Source: a candidate division FCPU426 bacterium (GTDB lineage Bacteria; Oederibacteriota; Muellerivitia; Muellerivitales; Muellerivitaceae). From it: 45,261 nucleotides of DNA. Where the stretch lies: assembly GCA_963847625.1 (NCBI GenBank), contig CAWKAR010000030.1, positions 1-45,261 of the forward strand, written 5' to 3'. Positions within the stretch are counted from its first letter, which is position 1. Every line of letters starts with the position of its first letter. A program made the translations under genes and the position numbers. Below, in pieces: positions 14,226 through 43,257 of the stretch. The notes below the pieces were generated by a model. That model did no database searches, was not told the DNA's origin, and saw only the letters and a program-made list of their open reading frames with translations.

Positions 14226-15338
14226 TTATTGAATTCTTCTGATCAATTGGTTGTCAGTATCCGCAACGTAAACATTTCCGGAAGAATCAACCGTGAGACC
14301 ATAGGGATAGTTGAACGAGGTAGCGGTCCCCTTTCCGTTAGCGGACCCGATTGACCCGGAACCAGCTAAGGTCGTTACCATCTCATCGTTGTTAATTTCG
14401 CGGATCAAACTGTTGTTGGTATCTGCGACGTAAACATTTCCGTGAGAATCAACCGCGACTCCACCTGGAAAATAAAATGACGCGGCAGTCCCCATTCCAT
14501 TAGTAGCCCCTGCCATCCCTGCCGTCCCCGCCAGAGTCGTCACCGTGCCCCCAGGTGCAATTTTCCGGATCAGATGGTTCCAAGTATCGGCAACGTAAAC
14601 ATTTCCGTGAGAATCAACTGAGATTCCGCCTGGAAAATAAAATGATGCGGCGGTTCCCATGCCGTTGGCGGCCCCGGCCATCCCTGCTGTCCCCGCCAGG
14701 GTCGTCACCGCGCCATCGGGGGCAATTTTCCGGATTAGATGGTTCCAAGTATCGGCGACGTAAACATTTCCGTGATAATCAACCGAGATTCCGCCTGGAA
14801 AATAAAATGATGCGGCGGTTCCCATTCCGTTGACGGCCCCGGCCACACCGGCCAACCCCGCCAGGGTCGTTACCGCGCCCCCAGGTGTAATTTTCCGGAT
14901 TAAATGGTTCCAAGTATCGGCGACGTAAACATTTCCGGAAGGATCGACGGCGATTCCATAGGGATAATAGAACGATGCGGCAGTTCCTGTGCCGTTGGAG
15001 GACCCAATGAATCCAGATCCTGCCAGGGTTGTCACTACGCCACCGGCGCTGATTTTCCGAATCTGATTGTTCCAAGTATCTGCAACATAAACATTTCCGG
15101 AGGAATCCACCGCAACTTTATTGGGAAAATTGAATAATGCGGCTTTTCCCGTTCCGTTGGCGGACCCAGTAACCCCTGCCGACCCCGCCAGGGTCGTTAC
15201 CACTACGCCATTGGTGTTTGTGGAAGGCGCGGTTGGATTGTTGTTTTTACTGCAGGAGATTGGAAAAATCCCCAAAAACGATATAAGTAATAAAATCAAT
15301 CCTAATGGATAAAGCATTCGGCGCATCGACAACCCCAA
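14226..15338 (-). CDS. NHL-repeat beta-propeller lipoprotein
   Basis: Lipobox FPISC and six 'F..P.G(I/V).VD..GNVYVADT.N..IRKI...VTTLAG' repeats. The central units are near-identical 168-bp repeats. The start may be slightly downstream. Confidence 0.9.
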   Translation of the reverse strand: MGLSMRRMLYPLGLILLLISFLGIFPISCSKNNNPTAPSTNTNGVVVTTLAGSAGVTGSANGTGKAALFNFPNKVAVDSSGNVYVADTWNNQIRKISAGGVVTTLAGSGFIGSSNGTGTAASFYYPYGIAVDPSGNVYVADTWNHLIRKITPGGAVTTLAGLAGVAGAVNGMGTAASFYFPGGISVDYHGNVYVADTWNHLIRKIAPDGAVTTLAGTAGMAGAANGMGTAASFYFPGGISVDSHGNVYVADTWNHLIRKIAPGGTVTTLAGTAGMAGATNGMGTAASFYFPGGVAVDSHGNVYVADTNNSLIREINNDEMVTTLAGSGSIGSANGKGTATSFNYPYGLTVDSSGNVYVADTDNQLIRRIQ

Positions 15339-18294: not shown

Positions 18295-19518
18295 TTACTG
18301 AATTTCCCTGATCAGTTGGTCCCAAGTATCCGCAACGTATACAATCCCGGAAGTATCAACCGCGACTCCAGTGGGCCCGTTAAACGATGCGGCGGTCCCA
18401 ATCCCATTGTTGGCGCAACATGGCCCACCCCCCGCCAGGGTTGTCACTAAGCCCCCGGGGGTGATTTCCCGGATAAGGTTGTTGTTAGTATCCGCGACGT
18501 AAACGTTCCCGGAGGCATCAACCGCGACTCCAGTGGGATTATAAAACGATGCGACGGTCCCAATCCCATTGTTGGCACAACATGGCCCACCCCCCGCCAG
18601 GGTCGTCACCACGCCCCCGGGAGTGATTTCCCGGATCAAAGAATTGCCATTATCCGCAATATAAACATTTCCTGAGGCATCGACCGCGACTCCAGTGGGA
18701 TTATAAAACAATGCGGCGGTCCCCGTTGCATTGGTGGACCCGGAAACCCCTGCCGATCCCGCCAGGGTCGAAACGACGCCTCCGGCTGTAATTTTCCGGA
18801 TCAATTGGTTGCTGGCATCCCCGACATAAACATTTCCGGAGGAATCAACCGCTATTCCAACGGGTAAGTTGAACGATGCGGAGGTCGCTGACCCGTTAGT
18901 GGATCCTTTGGACCCGGACCCCGCGAAGGTGGACACCAAGCCCCCGGGGGTGATTTCCCGGATCAAATTGTTGTAGGTATCCGCGACAAAAATATTTCCG
19001 GTGGAATCAACCGCAACTCCAGAGGGATGGTAGAACGATGCGGTGGTTCCCATTCCGTTGGTAGAACAACATAGCCCTCCACCCGCCAGGGTGGACACCA
19101 AGCCCCCGGGAGTAATTTTTCGGATCAGGTGGTTGCCCCAATCCGCGACGTAAACATTTCCGGCAGAATCAGCCGCAACTCCATAGGGCATATAAAACAA
19201 TGCGGCGATTCCGGTACCATTGTTGAATCCGCTGACCCCTGCCGATCCCGCGAGAGTCGTTACCATTCCCTCATTAGTCGGAATAGGCGTACAGGTATTG
19301 CCTGGGTAACCGCAAGGAGTATGGGTGGAAGTGGCCGTTGGAGTATTGGTGATGGTAAAAGTGAAGGTCGGCGTACAAATCGAGGGGTAGCAGACGCTGG
19401 TGGGCGTGGGAAAGATCCTGGCCGCAGTAGGGGGATTATCATTGCAGGCGATCTGGAAAAATCCCAAAAAAGATAGAAGTAAAAGGCCGGAACCCAAAAA
19501 ATAAAGATGTCGGCTCAT
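18295..19518 (-). CDS. NHL-repeat lipoprotein with a Thr/Pro/Cys stalk, paralog of 14226-15338
   Basis: The signal peptide runs from MSRHLYF to FQIAC (ATG 19518). It is followed by a TPT linker and six NHL repeats, three with CC loops. Confidence 0.88.
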   Translation of the reverse strand: MSRHLYFLGSGLLLLSFLGFFQIACNDNPPTAARIFPTPTSVCYPSICTPTFTFTITNTPTATSTHTPCGYPGNTCTPIPTNEGMVTTLAGSAGVSGFNNGTGIAALFYMPYGVAADSAGNVYVADWGNHLIRKITPGGLVSTLAGGGLCCSTNGMGTTASFYHPSGVAVDSTGNIFVADTYNNLIREITPGGLVSTFAGSGSKGSTNGSATSASFNLPVGIAVDSSGNVYVGDASNQLIRKITAGGVVSTLAGSAGVSGSTNATGTAALFYNPTGVAVDASGNVYIADNGNSLIREITPGGVVTTLAGGGPCCANNGIGTVASFYNPTGVAVDASGNVYVADTNNNLIREITPGGLVTTLAGGGPCCANNGIGTAASFNGPTGVAVDTSGIVYVADTWDQLIREIQ

Positions 19519-28317: not shown

Positions 28318-29805
28318 TCACTCGGCTTTGGGATGATTGAGAAGTTTGATGGCTTGCTGGGCATAAGCGTCCCCTTGCGCGGCGGCTTTCTGGTACCACA
28401 TCATGGCATTTTTATTGCTCGGGGGTACGCCTCGTCCATTTTCATAGAGGACTCCGATATTGTATTGGGCTGGCGCGTTGCCTTGCGCGGCGGCCTTTTG
28501 GTACCACTGCATGGCCTCCTGGTAATCCTGGGGCATGCCCCGGCCGCTGTCGTAGAGGACGCCGATATTGAATTCAGCGAGCGCGTTTCCCTGCGCGGCG
28601 GCCTTTTGGTACCACTTCATGGCCTCTTTATAATCCCGAGGCACACCCCGTCCATTCTCGTACAGAACGCCGATGTTGAATTCGGCGGGCGCGTTCCCCA
28701 GCGCGGCGGCCTTCTGGTACCACCTCATGGCTTCCAGGTAATCCTGAGGCACGCCCCGGCCCTTGTCATAGAGGAAACCAATGCTGGTATCAGCCGTCGT
28801 GTTCCCTTGCGCGGATGCCTTTTGGTACCACTTCATGGCCTCGTGGTAATCCTGGGGCACGCCCCGCCCGCTGTCATAGAGAACACCGATCGCGACTTCG
28901 GCGGGCGGGTTCCCCAGCGCGGCGGCCTTCTGGTACCACTTCATGGCCTCCTGATAATCCTGCAATACGCCCCGGCCGAAGTCATAGAGAGCGCCGATAG
29001 CGGCCTCGGCGCCCGCGTCCCCTTGCGCGGCCGCCTTCTGGTACCACTTCATGGCTTCGGTATAATCCTGGGGCACGCCCCGGCCGGTGTCGCAGAGAAC
29101 ACCAATTGCGGCCTCAGCACCCGCGTCCCCTTGCGCGGCGGCCTTTTGGTACCACTTCATGGCTTCAGAATAATCCTGGGCCACGCTCCGGCCGGTGTCA
29201 TAAAAAACGCCGGCCTTGTACTCCGCGCCCTGGTTTCCTTGCTCCGCAGCTTTTTGGTACCACTTCATGGCTTCCTGGTAATCCTGGGGCATTCCTTGTC
29301 CGTTCTCATATTGAAGACCCATTTTGTATTCCGCCCAGGCGTTCCCTTGCGCGGCGGCTTTTTGATAGCACTTCATGGCTTCCTGGGAATTTTGAAGCAC
29401 GCCCCGCCCATTGTCATAGAGAACGCCGATATTGTATTCAGCGTCTGATTGCCCCTTCGCGGCGGCCTTCTGGTACCACTTCATGGCTTCCTGGTAATCC
29501 TGGGCCACGCCTTGCCCGTTCTCATAAAGAACGCCTATTTTGTATACAGCGTCCGCGCTCCCTTGCCCCGCGGCCTTTTGGTACCACTTCATGGCTTGGA
29601 CGAAGTCCCCGGTGTTGGATGCATCCGTACCGTTCTTGAACCATTCGGTAACCGCATTCGGGTCGCGCATGAATATGAAATCCGCGCCATTCTTCAACCA
29701 ATCGGAAACCGCGTCCAGGTTGCCCACGTAAAAGTAATAGGCCGCGAGCCAAATCCCGGCCCCGAAAATCAACGTCAAGATCGCGCGGACAAGAAATTTT
29801 TTCAT
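28318..29805 (-). CDS. Sel1-like repeat protein with an N-terminal signal/anchor
   Basis: About 12 repeats of 36 aa ('A...IG.LY..GRGV.QDY.EAMKWYQKAAAQG') with a 108-bp DNA period. Hydrophobic N-terminus from ATG 29805. Confidence 0.95.
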   Translation of the reverse strand: MKKFLVRAILTLIFGAGIWLAAYYFYVGNLDAVSDWLKNGADFIFMRDPNAVTEWFKNGTDASNTGDFVQAMKWYQKAAGQGSADAVYKIGVLYENGQGVAQDYQEAMKWYQKAAAKGQSDAEYNIGVLYDNGRGVLQNSQEAMKCYQKAAAQGNAWAEYKMGLQYENGQGMPQDYQEAMKWYQKAAEQGNQGAEYKAGVFYDTGRSVAQDYSEAMKWYQKAAAQGDAGAEAAIGVLCDTGRGVPQDYTEAMKWYQKAAAQGDAGAEAAIGALYDFGRGVLQDYQEAMKWYQKAAALGNPPAEVAIGVLYDSGRGVPQDYHEAMKWYQKASAQGNTTADTSIGFLYDKGRGVPQDYLEAMRWYQKAAALGNAPAEFNIGVLYENGRGVPRDYKEAMKWYQKAAAQGNALAEFNIGVLYDSGRGMPQDYQEAMQWYQKAAAQGNAPAQYNIGVLYENGRGVPPSNKNAMMWYQKAAAQGDAYAQQAIKLLNHPKAE

Positions 29806-37487: not shown

Positions 37488-40310
37488 ATGGATAGTCAGA
37501 AAACCAGTTTATATAGAAGTGTTATGGGTCTTTTGGTCTTCAGCACCGCGGTCTATTTCTGCCTGGGCGCCGCCGGTTCCGGTCCCCATTCCAAGGTTCA
37601 ACCTCCGGCTCAATCCCGGTACACCCAAGCGCATCCCGCCAGCCAGATACAATTCAACCAAGCCTACGGCAAACTTCCCCTTTACTTCGAGCCCAACCTG
37701 GGCCAGGTCCGTTCAACAGTTTCAGGACAAGCCGACCCGCAAGTGAGGTTCGTTTCCAGGGGAAGCGGCTATTCCCTTTTCGTCACTCCCCGCGAGGCGG
37801 TGCTGGTCCTGAAAAAACCAAACAAAGAACTTTCATCCCAAAAGCGTAAAGGCCTGGGATTCCGGCTTCCCAATCCTCACCCCTCACCCTCATATGATGT
37901 CCTGCGCATGAGGCTGGAAGGGGCCGATCCCAAGGCCGAATGGCGCGGTGAGGAGAAGATGGAAGGAACGGCCAATTACTTCCTCGGCAATGATCCTTCG
38001 AGGTGGCGGACGAAAGTTCCCATGTACGCCAAAGTGAAAGCCCAGAATGTCTATCCCGGCATCGACATGGTTTATTACGGCAGCCAAAGGCAGTTGGAAT
38101 ACGACTTTGTCGTGAACCCCGGCGCCGACCCGGGCGCCATCGAGTTGACATATGAGGGCGCGAAGGAGGCGGAAATCGACGATCAAGGGAACCTTGTCCT
38201 GAAAGCCCCCGGCGGGAATGTATCCTTCAAGACCCCCCGGATTTATCAACCTACCGCCGAAGGAGAGGTCAATGTGACCGGCCGTTATGTCCCGAGGGGT
38301 GAAAACAAATTCGGATTCGAGTTGGGGGCATACGACAAGACCGGGCCCTTGGTGATCGATCCGGCATTGGCCCTGGCTTATTCCACCTATCTCGGCGGAA
38401 TCCAACAGGATAATGGCGCCAGAATAGTCGTGGACGCGGGCGGGTACGCCTACGTGACCGGTTTTGGGGGTTCCGCCTTCCCGACGACACCCGGGGCGTT
38501 CCAAACGGCATACGGAGGGGTATGGATCGACGCTTATGTGTCCAAGTTAAGTCCGGATGGTTCGACTCTTCTTTATTCGACCTATCTGGGGGGGAACACC
38601 GATGACCGGGGCCAGGACATCGCACTGGATTCGAAAGGGGATGCTTTCATTACCGGATGGACCGCTTCCGCGAATTTTCCCACCACCCCAGGCGCTTATC
38701 AAACCGTCTTAAGTGGAAGTAATGACGCCATTGTGGCTGAAATCGATCCGACTGGTTCGTCGTTGCTTTATTCAACATATCTGGGCGGCACGGGCGATGA
38801 CGGCGGTTACGGAATCGCCCTGGACGCGAATGGCGGGATTTACGTGACGGGGTATGCCAGCGCCGGTTTTCCCACCACCACGGGAGCCTACCAAACCGCT
38901 ATTCCGGGAACTTACGCCAGCTTCGTGGCCAAATTGAACCCCAACGGATTTGGTAGCGCGGACCTGGTTTATTCCACCTATTTGGGGCCATCTTATTATA
39001 CGTACGGGGGTTATGGGATCGCGGTGGATGCCGCCGGCAACGCACTTGTGGCAGGATGCGCCCAAGCGGGGTTCCCCACCACCGCCGGCGCGTATCAAAC
39101 GGCCTTTGGCACATACTCACACGACCCTTTCTTGACCAAGCTGAACGCCGACGGATCGGCTTTGCTCTATTCCACTTTTATAGGGTATTGGTTTGGCCTT
39201 GCCCTGGCGGTGGACGGGAACGGCGATGCCTACATGACCGGATATTCCGGGACGGGTTTTCCCACAACACCGGGTGCCTTCCAAACGGTCGATATCAGCG
39301 GCGGACTTATCGCCTATGTAGCCAAGATTCACCCCGCGGGGGGCGGAACCGCGGACTTGGTCTATTCGACTTATTTGACATCGAGCGGCGGCGATGTGGT
39401 GGGTATGGGCATCGCGGTGGACTCAAGCGGGGACGCCTACGTGACCGGAACCGCGGACCCGGGGTTCACCATAACAGCGGGGGCCTTGCAAACAGCCGCT
39501 CTAGCCCCCGAATATAATTCCTTCATAGCCGAGTTGAACCCGGGCGGATCTGCCCTCATCTATTCGACTTACTTGTCCGGGACCATAGATACCGTCAGCG
39601 AGGGCATCACGGTCGACTCAAGCGGAGGGATCTATGTGACGGGATACACCGATACTGGTTTTCCCATGACCTCGGGTGCCTACCAAACGATTTATGGCGG
39701 CGGTTTTAGCGACGTCTTCGTAACTAAATTAGGTGGAGGACCTTTTATTACACCCACGGCGACGCTTACTCCGGCGATCACCAACACACCTCCCCCCACT
39801 AACACACCCACGAACACGCCTACGCCTACCAACACGCCGACTGTCACCTCGACTCCAACAATTACCAATACCCCCACGGTGACCCTTACGCCTACGGCCA
39901 CCAACTCACCTACTCAAACCCGGACACCGACGAATACCTCGTCCCCCACCGCAACCCCTATTCCGGCTTCCACATCCACATCAACTGTTACCCCGACGCC
40001 GACCTCAACACCCCTTCCTTCCTGCGACGAGTTCTACATCTCAAAAAACGCGTACTTCCCATCTAACGGGCCCATCTCGATCTACGTCTCTTATTGCCAG
40101 TATCCCGGTAATTACTCTTTGAAGGTTTATAACTCAGCGGGAGAACACATCAAAACCTTGGATGAGCAGTATTTAGAAGCGCCTATTGCCGCATCTTACC
40201 AATGGGATGGGAAAAACAAATACGGGGACCCCTGCGCCAGCGGAGTCTATATCTTTTACCTGGTCGAGCCTTACAACCGCCACATGAAAAGGGTGCTTCT
40301 TTTAAAGTAA
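37488..40310 (+). CDS. SBBP-repeat surface protein with a Thr/Pro stalk and a FlgD-Ig/T9SS-like C-terminal domain
   Basis: The N-domain reads 'LPLYFEPNLGQ...NYFLGNDP..W...YPGID..YYG...LEYDFVV'. It is followed by repeats 'YSTYLGG...IAVD..G.AYVTG...FPTT.GAYQT' and a ~90-aa TPT tract. The C-terminus reads 'LKVYNSAGEHIKTL...WDGKN..G...ASGVYI'. Confidence 0.9.
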   Translation: MDSQKTSLYRSVMGLLVFSTAVYFCLGAAGSGPHSKVQPPAQSRYTQAHPASQIQFNQAYGKLPLYFEPNLGQVRSTVSGQADPQVRFVSRGSGYSLFVTPREAVLVLKKPNKELSSQKRKGLGFRLPNPHPSPSYDVLRMRLEGADPKAEWRGEEKMEGTANYFLGNDPSRWRTKVPMYAKVKAQNVYPGIDMVYYGSQRQLEYDFVVNPGADPGAIELTYEGAKEAEIDDQGNLVLKAPGGNVSFKTPRIYQPTAEGEVNVTGRYVPRGENKFGFELGAYDKTGPLVIDPALALAYSTYLGGIQQDNGARIVVDAGGYAYVTGFGGSAFPTTPGAFQTAYGGVWIDAYVSKLSPDGSTLLYSTYLGGNTDDRGQDIALDSKGDAFITGWTASANFPTTPGAYQTVLSGSNDAIVAEIDPTGSSLLYSTYLGGTGDDGGYGIALDANGGIYVTGYASAGFPTTTGAYQTAIPGTYASFVAKLNPNGFGSADLVYSTYLGPSYYTYGGYGIAVDAAGNALVAGCAQAGFPTTAGAYQTAFGTYSHDPFLTKLNADGSALLYSTFIGYWFGLALAVDGNGDAYMTGYSGTGFPTTPGAFQTVDISGGLIAYVAKIHPAGGGTADLVYSTYLTSSGGDVVGMGIAVDSSGDAYVTGTADPGFTITAGALQTAALAPEYNSFIAELNPGGSALIYSTYLSGTIDTVSEGITVDSSGGIYVTGYTDTGFPMTSGAYQTIYGGGFSDVFVTKLGGGPFITPTATLTPAITNTPPPTNTPTNTPTPTNTPTVTSTPTITNTPTVTLTPTATNSPTQTRTPTNTSSPTATPIPASTSTSTVTPTPTSTPLPSCDEFYISKNAYFPSNGPISIYVSYCQYPGNYSLKVYNSAGEHIKTLDEQYLEAPIAASYQWDGKNKYGDPCASGVYIFYLVEPYNRHMKRVLLLK

Positions 40311-40780
40311 AAACCCCCTTCGAGATATAATTAGGCGTGAGAATGAATATGCCGAAAGTATCTAAGAAAAATATGCGGCTCTTGAACGCAGGTTTATTCA
40401 CCTGCGTCATCGCGGTATTTGGAATGGGTTTGGTATCCGCAACCCATAACAGTCCTTCCCCCAAAAAGCCCCAAACTTCCCCAAAAAGTGCCCAACCGAA
40501 TCAACTGACTCAACTTAAAATCAACCAAAATTATGGGCATATTCCCCTCTACTTCGAGCCCAACGAAGGTCAGTCAGACCCTCAAGTCAAATTCATTTCC
40601 CGTGGAAGCGGCTATTCCCTTTTCCTCACCCCCGCCGAAGCGGTGTTTGCTTTAAGAAGTGGATCGCCTAAAGACTTATCACCGAAAGCCGGGGTCCTTG
40701 GCTATAAATTCCGAATTCCTAATTCCAAATTCCTGCTATGAGGCCGTTCGTCAAGCCCCGTGATTTTATTGAATGGTCCA

Positions 40781-40924
40781 AAGTTTTCGTGAATTCATCC
40801 TGCTATTCGTGCTCAAGGCACATGATAAGATCCGATACGTAATAAAGGGAGCCACCACCTAATGGGCGTGTTCTAGACACCGGAATTAGCCGTGGTCATC
40901 CCCAAAAATCGAATCACGAAACTT
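40781..40924 (-). ncRNA. Predicted bridge/seek RNA of the IS110/IS1111-type element
   Basis: An outer stem (40781-40796 with 40911-40924) encloses two internal loops whose strands match the target (CTAATTCC, ATTAG) and the circle junction (ATCTTATC, ATAGCAG). Boundaries are approximate. Confidence 0.8.
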
Positions 40925-40945
40925 AAACCACTCCTTTTAACCTGC

Positions 40946-42013
40946 TTAAGCCAATGGCCGATAAGCCTCTTGCCGAACCAACATTGTCCACAGGTGAACC
41001 AATATCTTCCTAGCCATCGCCACGATGGCCTTATTGGGGCTTCCTGTGTTTCTCGCCAACCTTCCGTAAATCTTCGCCGCCTGCCGATCCACCCGAATCC
41101 AAGCCCAGGCGCTTTCCAACAAAGCCGATCTCAAATGATTTTTCCCTGCTTTTAGTAATGGCCCTTCCTTCCGGCTTTCCCCACTTTGCCTCACTCGGGG
41201 TGCCAATCCAACATATGCCACCACTTGTTTCGCGTTCTGGAATCTCTCCGGCTGATACACCTCGGCCAGCATCTGCGCCGCCGTCACTTCTCCGACCCCT
41301 GGATGACTCCTCAATATCCTGGTTTTTTTCTCATAGACCTTCGAGCTGTATTGCTCCTTGATTTGGTCTTTCACCTTTCCCAGTTGATCTTCCAGGTAAT
41401 AAAACTCCTCCAAAAACCTATCCAGCGTGAAACGCAGCGCCTTATTCAATTCGATCTTTCCAAGAGCCTTCACGGCTTTCCGTGACCAATGGCTCAGACC
41501 TTCCGGTTCCTCAAGGCCGTATTGCAAGAGAAAACCCTTAATTTGCTGTTTCACACGCCTTCTCTTCTCTACCAATGAACTCCTCAGCCTCAATACCTGG
41601 CGGTATGCTTCCTCTTCTACGGTCGGTATCACTACCGCCCGCAATAGCCCCTTCTCCGCGTATTCGGCAAGCATCCGGCAGTCCAGGCGGTCTGACTTGG
41701 CCCCTTCCACAACCGATCTGGGAATCTTTCCAGGGGCAACTACCTCTACCGGTATTCCAACATCTTTCAGCCGCCTCGCTAATCCATATCCCGTGGGGCC
41801 GGCTTCGTACACCACTTTCCGCAAACCTAGCTGGTACTTCTCCAAAAATCTTTTTACGACCTCACGATCAGCCGGCAGGGATTTTATCCCAGCCTCAACC
41901 CCATTCACTCTGACTGCCGCGTAAATACTGCGTTTGTGCACATCTAAACCAACGTAAACGCAGTCTTTCTTGGTGATACCAACCCTTCTTTCCACTGTGC
42001 TACTATTTCTCAT
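40946..42013 (-). CDS. IS110-family DEDD recombinase/transposase
   Basis: RuvC-like DEDD residues in 'VGLDVHK', 'YEAG' and 'KSDRLD'. Also 'PGVG', 'YVGLAP..RQSG' (catalytic Ser) and 'AIVAMARK'. Confidence 0.96.
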   Translation of the reverse strand: MRNSSTVERRVGITKKDCVYVGLDVHKRSIYAAVRVNGVEAGIKSLPADREVVKRFLEKYQLGLRKVVYEAGPTGYGLARRLKDVGIPVEVVAPGKIPRSVVEGAKSDRLDCRMLAEYAEKGLLRAVVIPTVEEEAYRQVLRLRSSLVEKRRRVKQQIKGFLLQYGLEEPEGLSHWSRKAVKALGKIELNKALRFTLDRFLEEFYYLEDQLGKVKDQIKEQYSSKVYEKKTRILRSHPGVGEVTAAQMLAEVYQPERFQNAKQVVAYVGLAPRVRQSGESRKEGPLLKAGKNHLRSALLESAWAWIRVDRQAAKIYGRLARNTGSPNKAIVAMARKILVHLWTMLVRQEAYRPLA

Positions 42014-42246
42014 GCCGTTCCTCCTTAAGAGCTAGACACTCCTGCCGGGATTCTATCCCGGCGGGAGGAACGGCCTGCATGTTATCTAATTCCAAAAACC
42101 TCACTCCCAACTCCCCCAGCCGTTCTGCGTCTGAGGCTCGAGGGAGGCAACCGAAAAGCCGAGTTCGAAGCCCTCGAAGAAGCTCCGGGAAAGAGTAATT
42201 ACTTCATCGGCTGTAGTGTTCACAAAATATCTTCCGGAATTTCCTG

Positions 42247-43257
42247 TTAAGCACGACAATTTTTTCCGCCCCTCAGAATGTTAATCAAGTGATTTTTCTC
42301 AAGTGTTTCGTAAATAGCTAACCGCTCCGCTTTTCGTTTTTCTCTGGGTGTTTCACCTCCTTGTACCGCTTTTTTAATATTCCTGCAAGCTTCCAGGTAG
42401 AAAGTCTCCCGATCAACCAGCGAAGGGCCTTTCACAAGGCTGTTTTCAAGCTGCTGGGCGCTCTGATAACCTTTGCTGGCCCTAGGTCGGCCATCTAGCA
42501 GGTGCCACGTTTTCGCTAAGCACGATACTGCTTCTTGCACAGCACGAAATCCAACCCCTTTTTCCAGGCTGGATTCCGCCTTTATTTCGCCGATTCCTCG
42601 CTCAGCGGCCCCATTGTCCTGCGGTGTTCGGGGTCGAGAAAGCAGATGAATCACTTTTTCGTGTCGTAGGTAGTCTGTTAATTTTTCGTTTTTGTAGGCC
42701 GAACCATTGTCGGTCGACCAAACCAAAGGCAGTCCTGTTTTCTTTTTTTGCAGCTCCAACATGGTCAATATATTTTCTGCTTTAGCAGCGGGTCCGACTG
42801 CCAGACCCTTAAAACCCAAAGTCGCTCGATCTTTGATTACTTCTGCCTGCAATGCTACTTTTCCAACACGCCCAATGTGCGCCGCGTCCTGCGCCCAGAT
42901 CACATCTTTTGCCAACACCTCTACGCTCACCCGGTTTTTCTCGGCCAACTCCCTCAACTTTTTCCTGTGTCTCGCCTTTATTTGGGACAGGCTTTCCTGC
43001 ACCAACCTCGTCGATACTTTGCCGCGAAGGATGGCCGCAATAGATCTCCATCCTGTAGTCCAACCAAAATCCCTCACTTGACGCCTTACTGCCAACTTAG
43101 CCCGATACCTTGCACTCGCGGAATACGCGGGGCGTCCCTGTTTTCTTTTTTGATTATGCGCCCCGCGAATCCAATTATTCAGCGTCCTCTCACTCACCTG
43201 AAGTTGGCTGGATAGAAGCTTCCGTTGGCCCCGGCAATTTTTCTTCCCCAACAACAT
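42247..43257 (-). CDS. DDE integrase-core (rve) transposase-like protein with an N-terminal HTH
   Basis: Motifs 'LQVSERTLNNW', 'IWAQD', 'STDNGSAY' and 'PRTPQDNGAAER'. Confidence 0.8.
   Translation of the reverse strand: MLLGKKNCRGQRKLLSSQLQVSERTLNNWIRGAHNQKRKQGRPAYSASARYRAKLAVRRQVRDFGWTTGWRSIAAILRGKVSTRLVQESLSQIKARHRKKLRELAEKNRVSVEVLAKDVIWAQDAAHIGRVGKVALQAEVIKDRATLGFKGLAVGPAAKAENILTMLELQKKKTGLPLVWSTDNGSAYKNEKLTDYLRHEKVIHLLSRPRTPQDNGAAERGIGEIKAESSLEKGVGFRAVQEAVSCLAKTWHLLDGRPRASKGYQSAQQLENSLVKGPSLVDRETFYLEACRNIKKAVQGGETPREKRKAERLAIYETLEKNHLINILRGGKNCRA

Follow-up and report, generated by a model that had tools for sequence, protein, structure and literature searches.

An IS1111-type element whose predicted bridge RNA guides match the consensus of a host heptamer repeat

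Near one end of the window, a 45,261-nucleotide stretch of DNA from a candidate division FCPU426 bacterium, a surface-protein gene is broken by an insertion sequence that sits within a tandem array of seven-base units. This arrangement raises the question of whether the element reached the array by chance or was aimed at it by a guide RNA of its own and, in the latter case, of what such an array offers to a mobile element. The initial annotation of this locus took dispersed heptamers to be the target class of an IS110 element, and suggested that such insertions could act as reversible switches; the analysis reported here bears out the first idea and speaks against the second.

The interrupted gene and the element within it

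The 5′ part of the interrupted gene, of DUF7948/SBBP type, occupies 40337–40734 on the forward strand (open reading frame 40337–40741), and its N-terminus matches DUF7948 with an E value of 1.6e-5 at 25.5 bits, below the 27-bit cut-off. Four units of the host array precede the element (40707–40734, forward strand), the fourth ending in the CT core at 40733–40734 and the left target lying at 40726–40732; units 5–8 follow it (42088–42115, forward strand), with the right target beginning at 42088. Removal of 40735–42087 in silico leaves exactly these eight units and an open frame from the start at 40337, through the continuation of the gene (42088–42210, forward strand), to a second insertion at 42211. 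The array, its eight units and its place in a variable loop of an SBBP gene are therefore as first annotated, as is the start of the span at 40707, whereas its end lies at 42115 and not at 42113.

The adjacent intact paralog (37488–40310, forward strand; DUF7948, SBBP repeats and a weak FlgD_ig match) is one of about 19 DUF7948 loci in the genome. Its degenerate tract, CCTCACC, previously put at about 37860–37895, does lie in the homologous loop (37875–37889), but makes a poor reference for the empty site; in its place we used the intact paralog at G000:C45:71439, in which the loop likewise has eight units, in register.

The element itself (40735–42087, reverse strand) is 1353 bp long, counting one CT core, and is delimited by three identical genome copies with common ends and differing flanks. 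CT stands on both sides, at 40733–40734 and 42086–42087. No target duplication beyond CT is apparent: the dinucleotide flanks all three full copies and one remnant (C3, see below), and the loop of the intact paralog has an equal unit count. The single long gene (40946–42013, reverse strand) encodes a 355-residue IS110 recombinase in which a profile search finds both the DEDD RuvC-like domain PF01548 and the Tnp domain PF02371 above cut-off; D24, E70, D108, D111 and S277 are candidate catalytic residues, placed by motif position and not by alignment to IS621.

On these and the following features, rather than on a tree, the element is assigned to the IS110 family, with every IS1111-group feature examined being present. 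The non-coding ends, 211 bp downstream and 74 bp upstream of the recombinase gene, have the layout of that group. At the right end (40735–40749, reverse strand), a 3-bp terminal extension (40735–40737) adjoins a sub-terminal inverted repeat (40738–40749), read from the sequence and kept in relatives; at the left end (42068–42087, reverse strand), the inverted repeat at 42068–42080 is followed by a 7-bp extension at 42081–42087 that includes the second CT. The 12-bp and 13-bp arms, which differ by one extra base, and the extensions of 7 and 3 bp are those expected of an IS1111-type element, and so is the order of the guides described below, the top-strand-complementary one coming first and the bottom-strand one second. 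An outward −35 hexamer, TTGACG (40749–40754, reverse strand), is partnered with a −10 hexamer in the left end (42079–42084) only when the ends are joined, the circle junction then giving the predicted promoter TTGACG-17 nt-TAACAT; a promoter scan found no promoter-like site in the linear element region. Rfam returned no matches within 40600–42300, and a blastn search of plasmid sequences found no match.

A predicted right-end bridge RNA and its reprogramming among relatives

Within its right end the element carries a readable bridge RNA, predicted from sequence, with a target loop and a donor loop of two guides each. The predicted core (40786–40920, reverse strand) comprises the target-binding loop and then the donor-binding loop, with an outer stem closing both, and was derived by consensus folding and pair counting over an alignment of the downstream regions of 11 elements, namely the window element and relatives with 51–84% protein identity (L005 and repeated copies from G025 and G026 being left out as duplicates). 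The resulting four-helix structure with two internal loops has 27 pairs, is 97.6% paired, includes 7 pairs changed on both sides and was equaled by 0 of 500 shuffles, statistics that are tilted towards the structure because the model was drawn from the same, related sequences. Folding of the single sequence gives a weak signal (z −1.89). Across the alignment, the scaffold and right donor guide are nearly invariant, and both target-guide blocks are hypervariable.

All four putative guides lie on the reverse strand. The left target guide, (G)CTAATTCC (40882–40890, with the core CTAATTCC at 40882–40889), occupies columns that are hypervariable among relatives and follow their flanks. The right target guide, CCATTAG (40859–40865), would pair with CT-AAT, with the target-loop handshake bases at 40857–40858; only 3 of its 5 bases beyond the core match, the other two fitting no site. 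In the donor loop, the left guide ATCTTATC (40824–40831) agrees at 7 of 8 positions with the end of the element itself as it stands in the circle junction, and the right guide ATAGCAG (40800–40806) is complementary to the junction at 7 of 7 and invariant in all 11 aligned elements; the donor-loop handshake bases, GA, are at 40798–40799. The target word specified by the guides is the 12-mer CTAATTC-CT-AAT, itself 7-periodic: shifted by seven bases, it agrees with itself at 5 of 7 positions, whereas five further distinct guide words, from relatives, reach 1–2 of 7. The guides spell the repeat consensus and not the exact site occupied in the window, which is one base off the left guide, as had been recognized from the sequence at the outset; the site of another copy (C21) is a full match.

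The target loop is naturally reprogrammed among relatives. At 11 relative loci with both flanks (a count that leaves out L001 and L008, with no readable target loop, and L006, L007 and L009, with no left end detected), a complete right-guide match (5 of 5 bases) is seen in 8 loci; for the left guide, 7 loci reach 6 of 8 or better and the other four reach 5 of 8 or fewer. In one genome (G006), all seven right ends fit the left guide within one base. This fit between relatives’ guides and their own flanks argues that the guide positions are real. Those guides point to other words, at sites often beside small hairpins (judged by eye), and close relatives (83–84% identity) bear unrelated guides. 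One scaffold thus serves at least six target words across the clade, with handshake bases that often follow the target, and the clade forms a compact natural reprogramming series, useful for bridge-RNA design rules in the IS1111 group.

Some features of these relatives may be recorded in passing. L002 and L013/L032, 84% and 63% identical to the window element, have exactly the same target guides, suggesting guide-loop exchange or convergence. The left flanks of L011, L012, L015, L016 and L018 and the flanks of L003–L005 contain small REP-like hairpin repeats, unlike heptamers. In the four G025 copies of a 63% relative (L011, L015, L018 and L019), roughly the final 15 bases of the right end are tandemly duplicated, and in L018 the second core is absent. 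The species-genome scan yielded one 43% relative, whose target loop is not recognizable. Pattern scans of viral sequences gave two matches, both to one phage coding stretch with neither transposase nor element similarity, and these were set down to chance; a scan of viral sequences for the donor-loop pattern found nothing.

Right-end seekRNA or bridge RNA elements of the IS1111 group include ISEc11, ISKpn4 (attC) and ISPa11 (REP) (PMC11187229, PMC11208160). As far as the accessible text of these papers goes, the window element resembles them in its long non-coding region downstream of the transposase, its sub-terminal inverted repeats with 7-bp and 3-bp extensions, its top-strand guide placed before the bottom-strand guide, its natural reprogramming and its dispersed host targets. 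It differs in that its target is a short tandem heptamer array with no folded REP or attC, and in that target and donor loops are both readable here. With IS621, as described in the accessible parts of PMC11208160, PMC11208158 and PMC13626964, it shares the CT core, a two-loop RNA with four guides and handshake bases, a circle-junction promoter (predicted here), the DEDD plus serine recombinase and a host-repeat target; unlike IS621, which has a left-end RNA and REP targets, it has its RNA in the right end and its CT strand opposite the transposase gene.

Target sites and the heptamer repeat

Besides the three identical full copies (C30, the window copy; C21; and C14), the genome holds two remnants, one internally deleted and 88% identical (C3) and one consisting of one end alone (C13). 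A further contig, X1, duplicates the C21 junction, may be the assembly’s own source and was not counted. At the four sites with two flanks, C30, C21, C14 and C3, the 12-mer is matched with 1, 0, 1 and 1 mismatches, and the right flank of the C13 remnant also fits the guide. The sites of the other copies read AATTC-CT-AA(T/C), all related to the AATTCCT-AAT word that the initial annotation had predicted for them, with C14 offering only a short run.

Heptamer arrays are clear at three of these four two-flank sites, with a short run at the fourth. Outside the guide-paired bases, periodicity scores are 11 (C30), 10 (C21), 7 (C14) and 9 (C3), each of 14, values reached by 0.035%, 0.09%, 3.9% and 0.27% of CT positions. 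In a wide window, the corresponding scores are 20, 17, 8 and 13, each of 28; with an array threshold of 14/28, C3 falls just below. The C14 site, with a wide-window score at background, lacks a long array and consists of three units in a short run next to a hairpin. One of the four occupied sites is coding and three are intergenic. In the right flanks of C14 and C13, a heptamer unit runs directly into a similar GC-rich hairpin, and this continuation suggests that some arrays belong to a composite repeat.

The bias towards arrays extends to free sites, within the scope of four two-flank sites in one genome. A perfect unoccupied guide-word site does not occur in the genome, and 17 of the 21 unoccupied one-mismatch sites score at least 14/28, falling in 10 arrays. 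Among 3000 permuted words, by comparison, 502 of 38,068 sites lie in arrays (1.3%) and no permuted word has 10 or more, and six guide words of relatives give 0 of 170 sites in arrays. An excess of target sites as such over permuted words was not found (21 against a mean of 12.6, a count reached by 16% of permutations). Nine sites of two other IS110 families in the same genome have periodicities of 1–6 of 14 and lie outside arrays, in a control that is rough, the right boundaries of family B being inexact by one or two bases and a right end common to two of its eight rows being counted once. Near-confinement of the guide word to AATTCCN-type arrays suggests that these serve as a dispersed pool of landing sites, in agreement with the target class first proposed.

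One of the unoccupied one-mismatch targets, at 40712–40723, belongs to the window array itself, 14 bp upstream of the occupied target, and tandem filling of one array would be possible. The two other IS110 families (29% and 28% identity) occur on C21, C24, C26, C32, C33, C34, C39, C55 and C19, and on C3 and C13; they use their own target words, and the left end is duplicated in one copy on C24. Contigs from four sequencing runs, a weak source given their low cover and the use of contigs only, include none that spans the stretch and show neither an empty site nor a circle joint; no RNA run carrying the stretch was listed. A contig from another study, about 91% identical to the element, has the flank CTCCTAACTT before the core, a sister heptamer, with the flank seen and the guide not visible.

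The heptamer repeat predates the element and is independent of it, since 10 of the 31 family genomes contain the AATTCCN pattern, against none for the reversed control, and the eight-unit loop also stands undisturbed in an intact paralog. The window genome contains 104 arrays of period 7, against 13, 52, 24 and 27 of periods 5, 8, 10 and 11. Two relatives, G003 and G028, have 21 and 20 pattern matches, with the guide word in perfect form in 8 and 3 of them; PF02371 has no match in either of these fragmented drafts, in which an insertion sequence may be missed. Two arrays of G001 were considered as an orthologous empty site and rejected as not orthologous.

Dispersed 7-bp arrays are known from Xanthomonas and Nostoc (PMC4692102) and from Geobacter (PMC2700814). 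Those described here resemble them in being dispersed, often in inverted pairs and mostly intergenic, with a minority inside genes; they differ in unit sequence, and an RNA-guided element aimed at such arrays is absent from the accessible parts of the same two papers. ISGme8 of Geobacter metallireducens, listed among the IS110 proteins in the supplement of PMC11208160, is a close precedent: octamer tandem repeats lie near it or at a set distance from it (PMC2700814). Unlike the window element, it lies near its array rather than inside it and has an octamer unit, and the accessible text of PMC2700814 gives no guide. Host-repeat targeting is already established in the IS110 family for REP and attC, on the accessible text of PMC11187229 and PMC11208160, and no new mechanism emerges from the present analysis. 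A literature search, with most subscription papers, ISfinder and part of the supplements outside its reach, did not find a heptamer array as a guide-encoded IS110 target. The known IS110 target classes (REP, attC and transposon ends) are extended here to short tandem heptamer arrays, with the guide as repeat consensus, and the element becomes an experimental handle on these arrays.

Competing accounts of the array insertion

We consider it highly probable that this is a selfish bridge-recombinase element of IS1111 type, and that natural reprogramming has directed its target loop to the consensus of a heptamer repeat in the host. By analogy with IS621 and ISEc11, the element would circularize, and the joined ends would form a promoter for recombinase and RNA; the donor loop would then pair with the circle junction and the target loop with CTAATTC-CT-AAT, and recombination at CT would insert the element in one orientation. 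With its guide fixed on the consensus of a repeat that is abundant and mostly intergenic, the element would find many low-cost landing sites. In some surface-protein paralogs a variable loop contains the array in frame, and the insertion in the window would be a chance knock-out, a by-product of this aim. The anatomy of the element, the matches between guides and flanks, the bias towards arrays, the reprogramming among relatives and the independence of the repeat from the element are observed; we infer expression, circle formation and any selective benefit of the target.

It is possible, though doubtful, that the link to arrays is incidental, the guide having drifted to an AT-rich 12-mer that host arrays happen to offer, with the periodicity playing no role in recognition and the target bringing no lasting benefit. 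The mechanism would be the same, and the two accounts differ only on selection. Guides do change quickly, as the unrelated guides of close relatives indicate, and the C14 site has little array context, both of which this account would lead one to expect; it fits less well with a guide word that is a perfect repeat word, recurring as such in G003 and G028, or with the finding that the 88% diverged C3 remnant and the 91% relative also sit in such repeats, so that the aim appears to have persisted through divergence.

Many heptamer arrays in the genomic regions inspected are intergenic or in inverted pairs, and among 80 open reading frames scanned, their neighbors include toxin–antitoxin, AAA_14/DUF4143, DUF218, polysaccharide and amino-acid biosynthesis genes; the sole PF05635 gene of the genome adjoins an array. 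The stretch G000:C3:6000-62000 (L020–L023) has dense arrays, many in inverted pairs, among toxin–antitoxin, AAA_14/DUF4143, DUF218 and polysaccharide genes. A broader proposal, which we think improbable, is that heptamer arrays bracketing accessory genes in many bacteria form a recurrent target class, reached independently by bridge recombinases. The target word, recurring at both cassette ends and in the loops of surface-protein paralogs, would then let such recombinases also move cassettes or knock paralogs out reversibly, and a missing mobilizing activity for heptamer arrays would be supplied.

The reversible switch put forward in the initial annotation, in which the element would enter and leave in-frame arrays of DUF7948/SBBP paralogs and so vary the cell surface, is speculative and, in our estimate, very unlikely. 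Precise excision at CT would indeed restore the frame, as then noted, but any precise excision does so, and frame restoration is therefore no evidence for a switch. Three other intact DUF7948/SBBP paralogs have unoccupied one-mismatch sites in the homologous loop, which would provide further places to enter; coding sites are nevertheless not enriched among occupied ones, of which 1 in 4 is coding, while 3 of the 9 other target arrays lie in long DUF7948 frames (small numbers). A precedent exists in IS492, which reportedly excises precisely at high frequency and is said to have a role in phase variation. IS621, according to the accessible text of PMC13626964, leaves post-excision (empty) junctions at a low level; with another IS110 element, however, the donor copy was still present in each of the 93 excision colonies scored. 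With handshake positions carried over from IS621, the handshake bases of the donor loop pair with target positions 6–7 at all four sites, which would give one Watson–Crick pair before exchange and three after, a count that disfavors excision in IS621 and by analogy would favor insertion here. The second insertion, moreover, breaks the gene in any case, and no continuation was found in the assembly.

That the arrays are products of the element, as footprints or expansions from repeated insertion and excision, is scarcely credible: IS110 loci can gather tandem non-coding units, of at least 50 bp according to the accessible part of a preprint (10.64898/2026.08.14.744561), but other paralogs have the homologous loop undisturbed, with a length difference of three whole units (the C60 paralog has five units, the 21 bp between the two leaving the frame unaffected), G003 and G028 are rich in the repeat with PF02371 matches in neither fragmented assembly, and heptamer classes unmatched by the guide are the commoner ones in this genome.

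As first annotated, the gene does carry a second insertion, a multicopy element unrelated to the first, with integrase-core (rve) open reading frames, which runs from 42211 to the contig end at 45261 on the reverse strand. None of 18 downstream-domain matches in the assembly is an orphan downstream continuation of the interrupted gene. The 3-kb insertion has two integrase-core frames and one small frame, and near-identical copies lie at the ends of C29, C28 and C22 (99.9%) and of C18 (94.6%); all break at the same end, and the element therefore probably extends further. On C25, a diverged pair of its ends stands in reversed order about 2 kb apart. Elsewhere in the window, long coding tandem repeats occupy 14256–15201, 18302–19207 and 28367–29597, with periods of 165, 162 and 108 bp.
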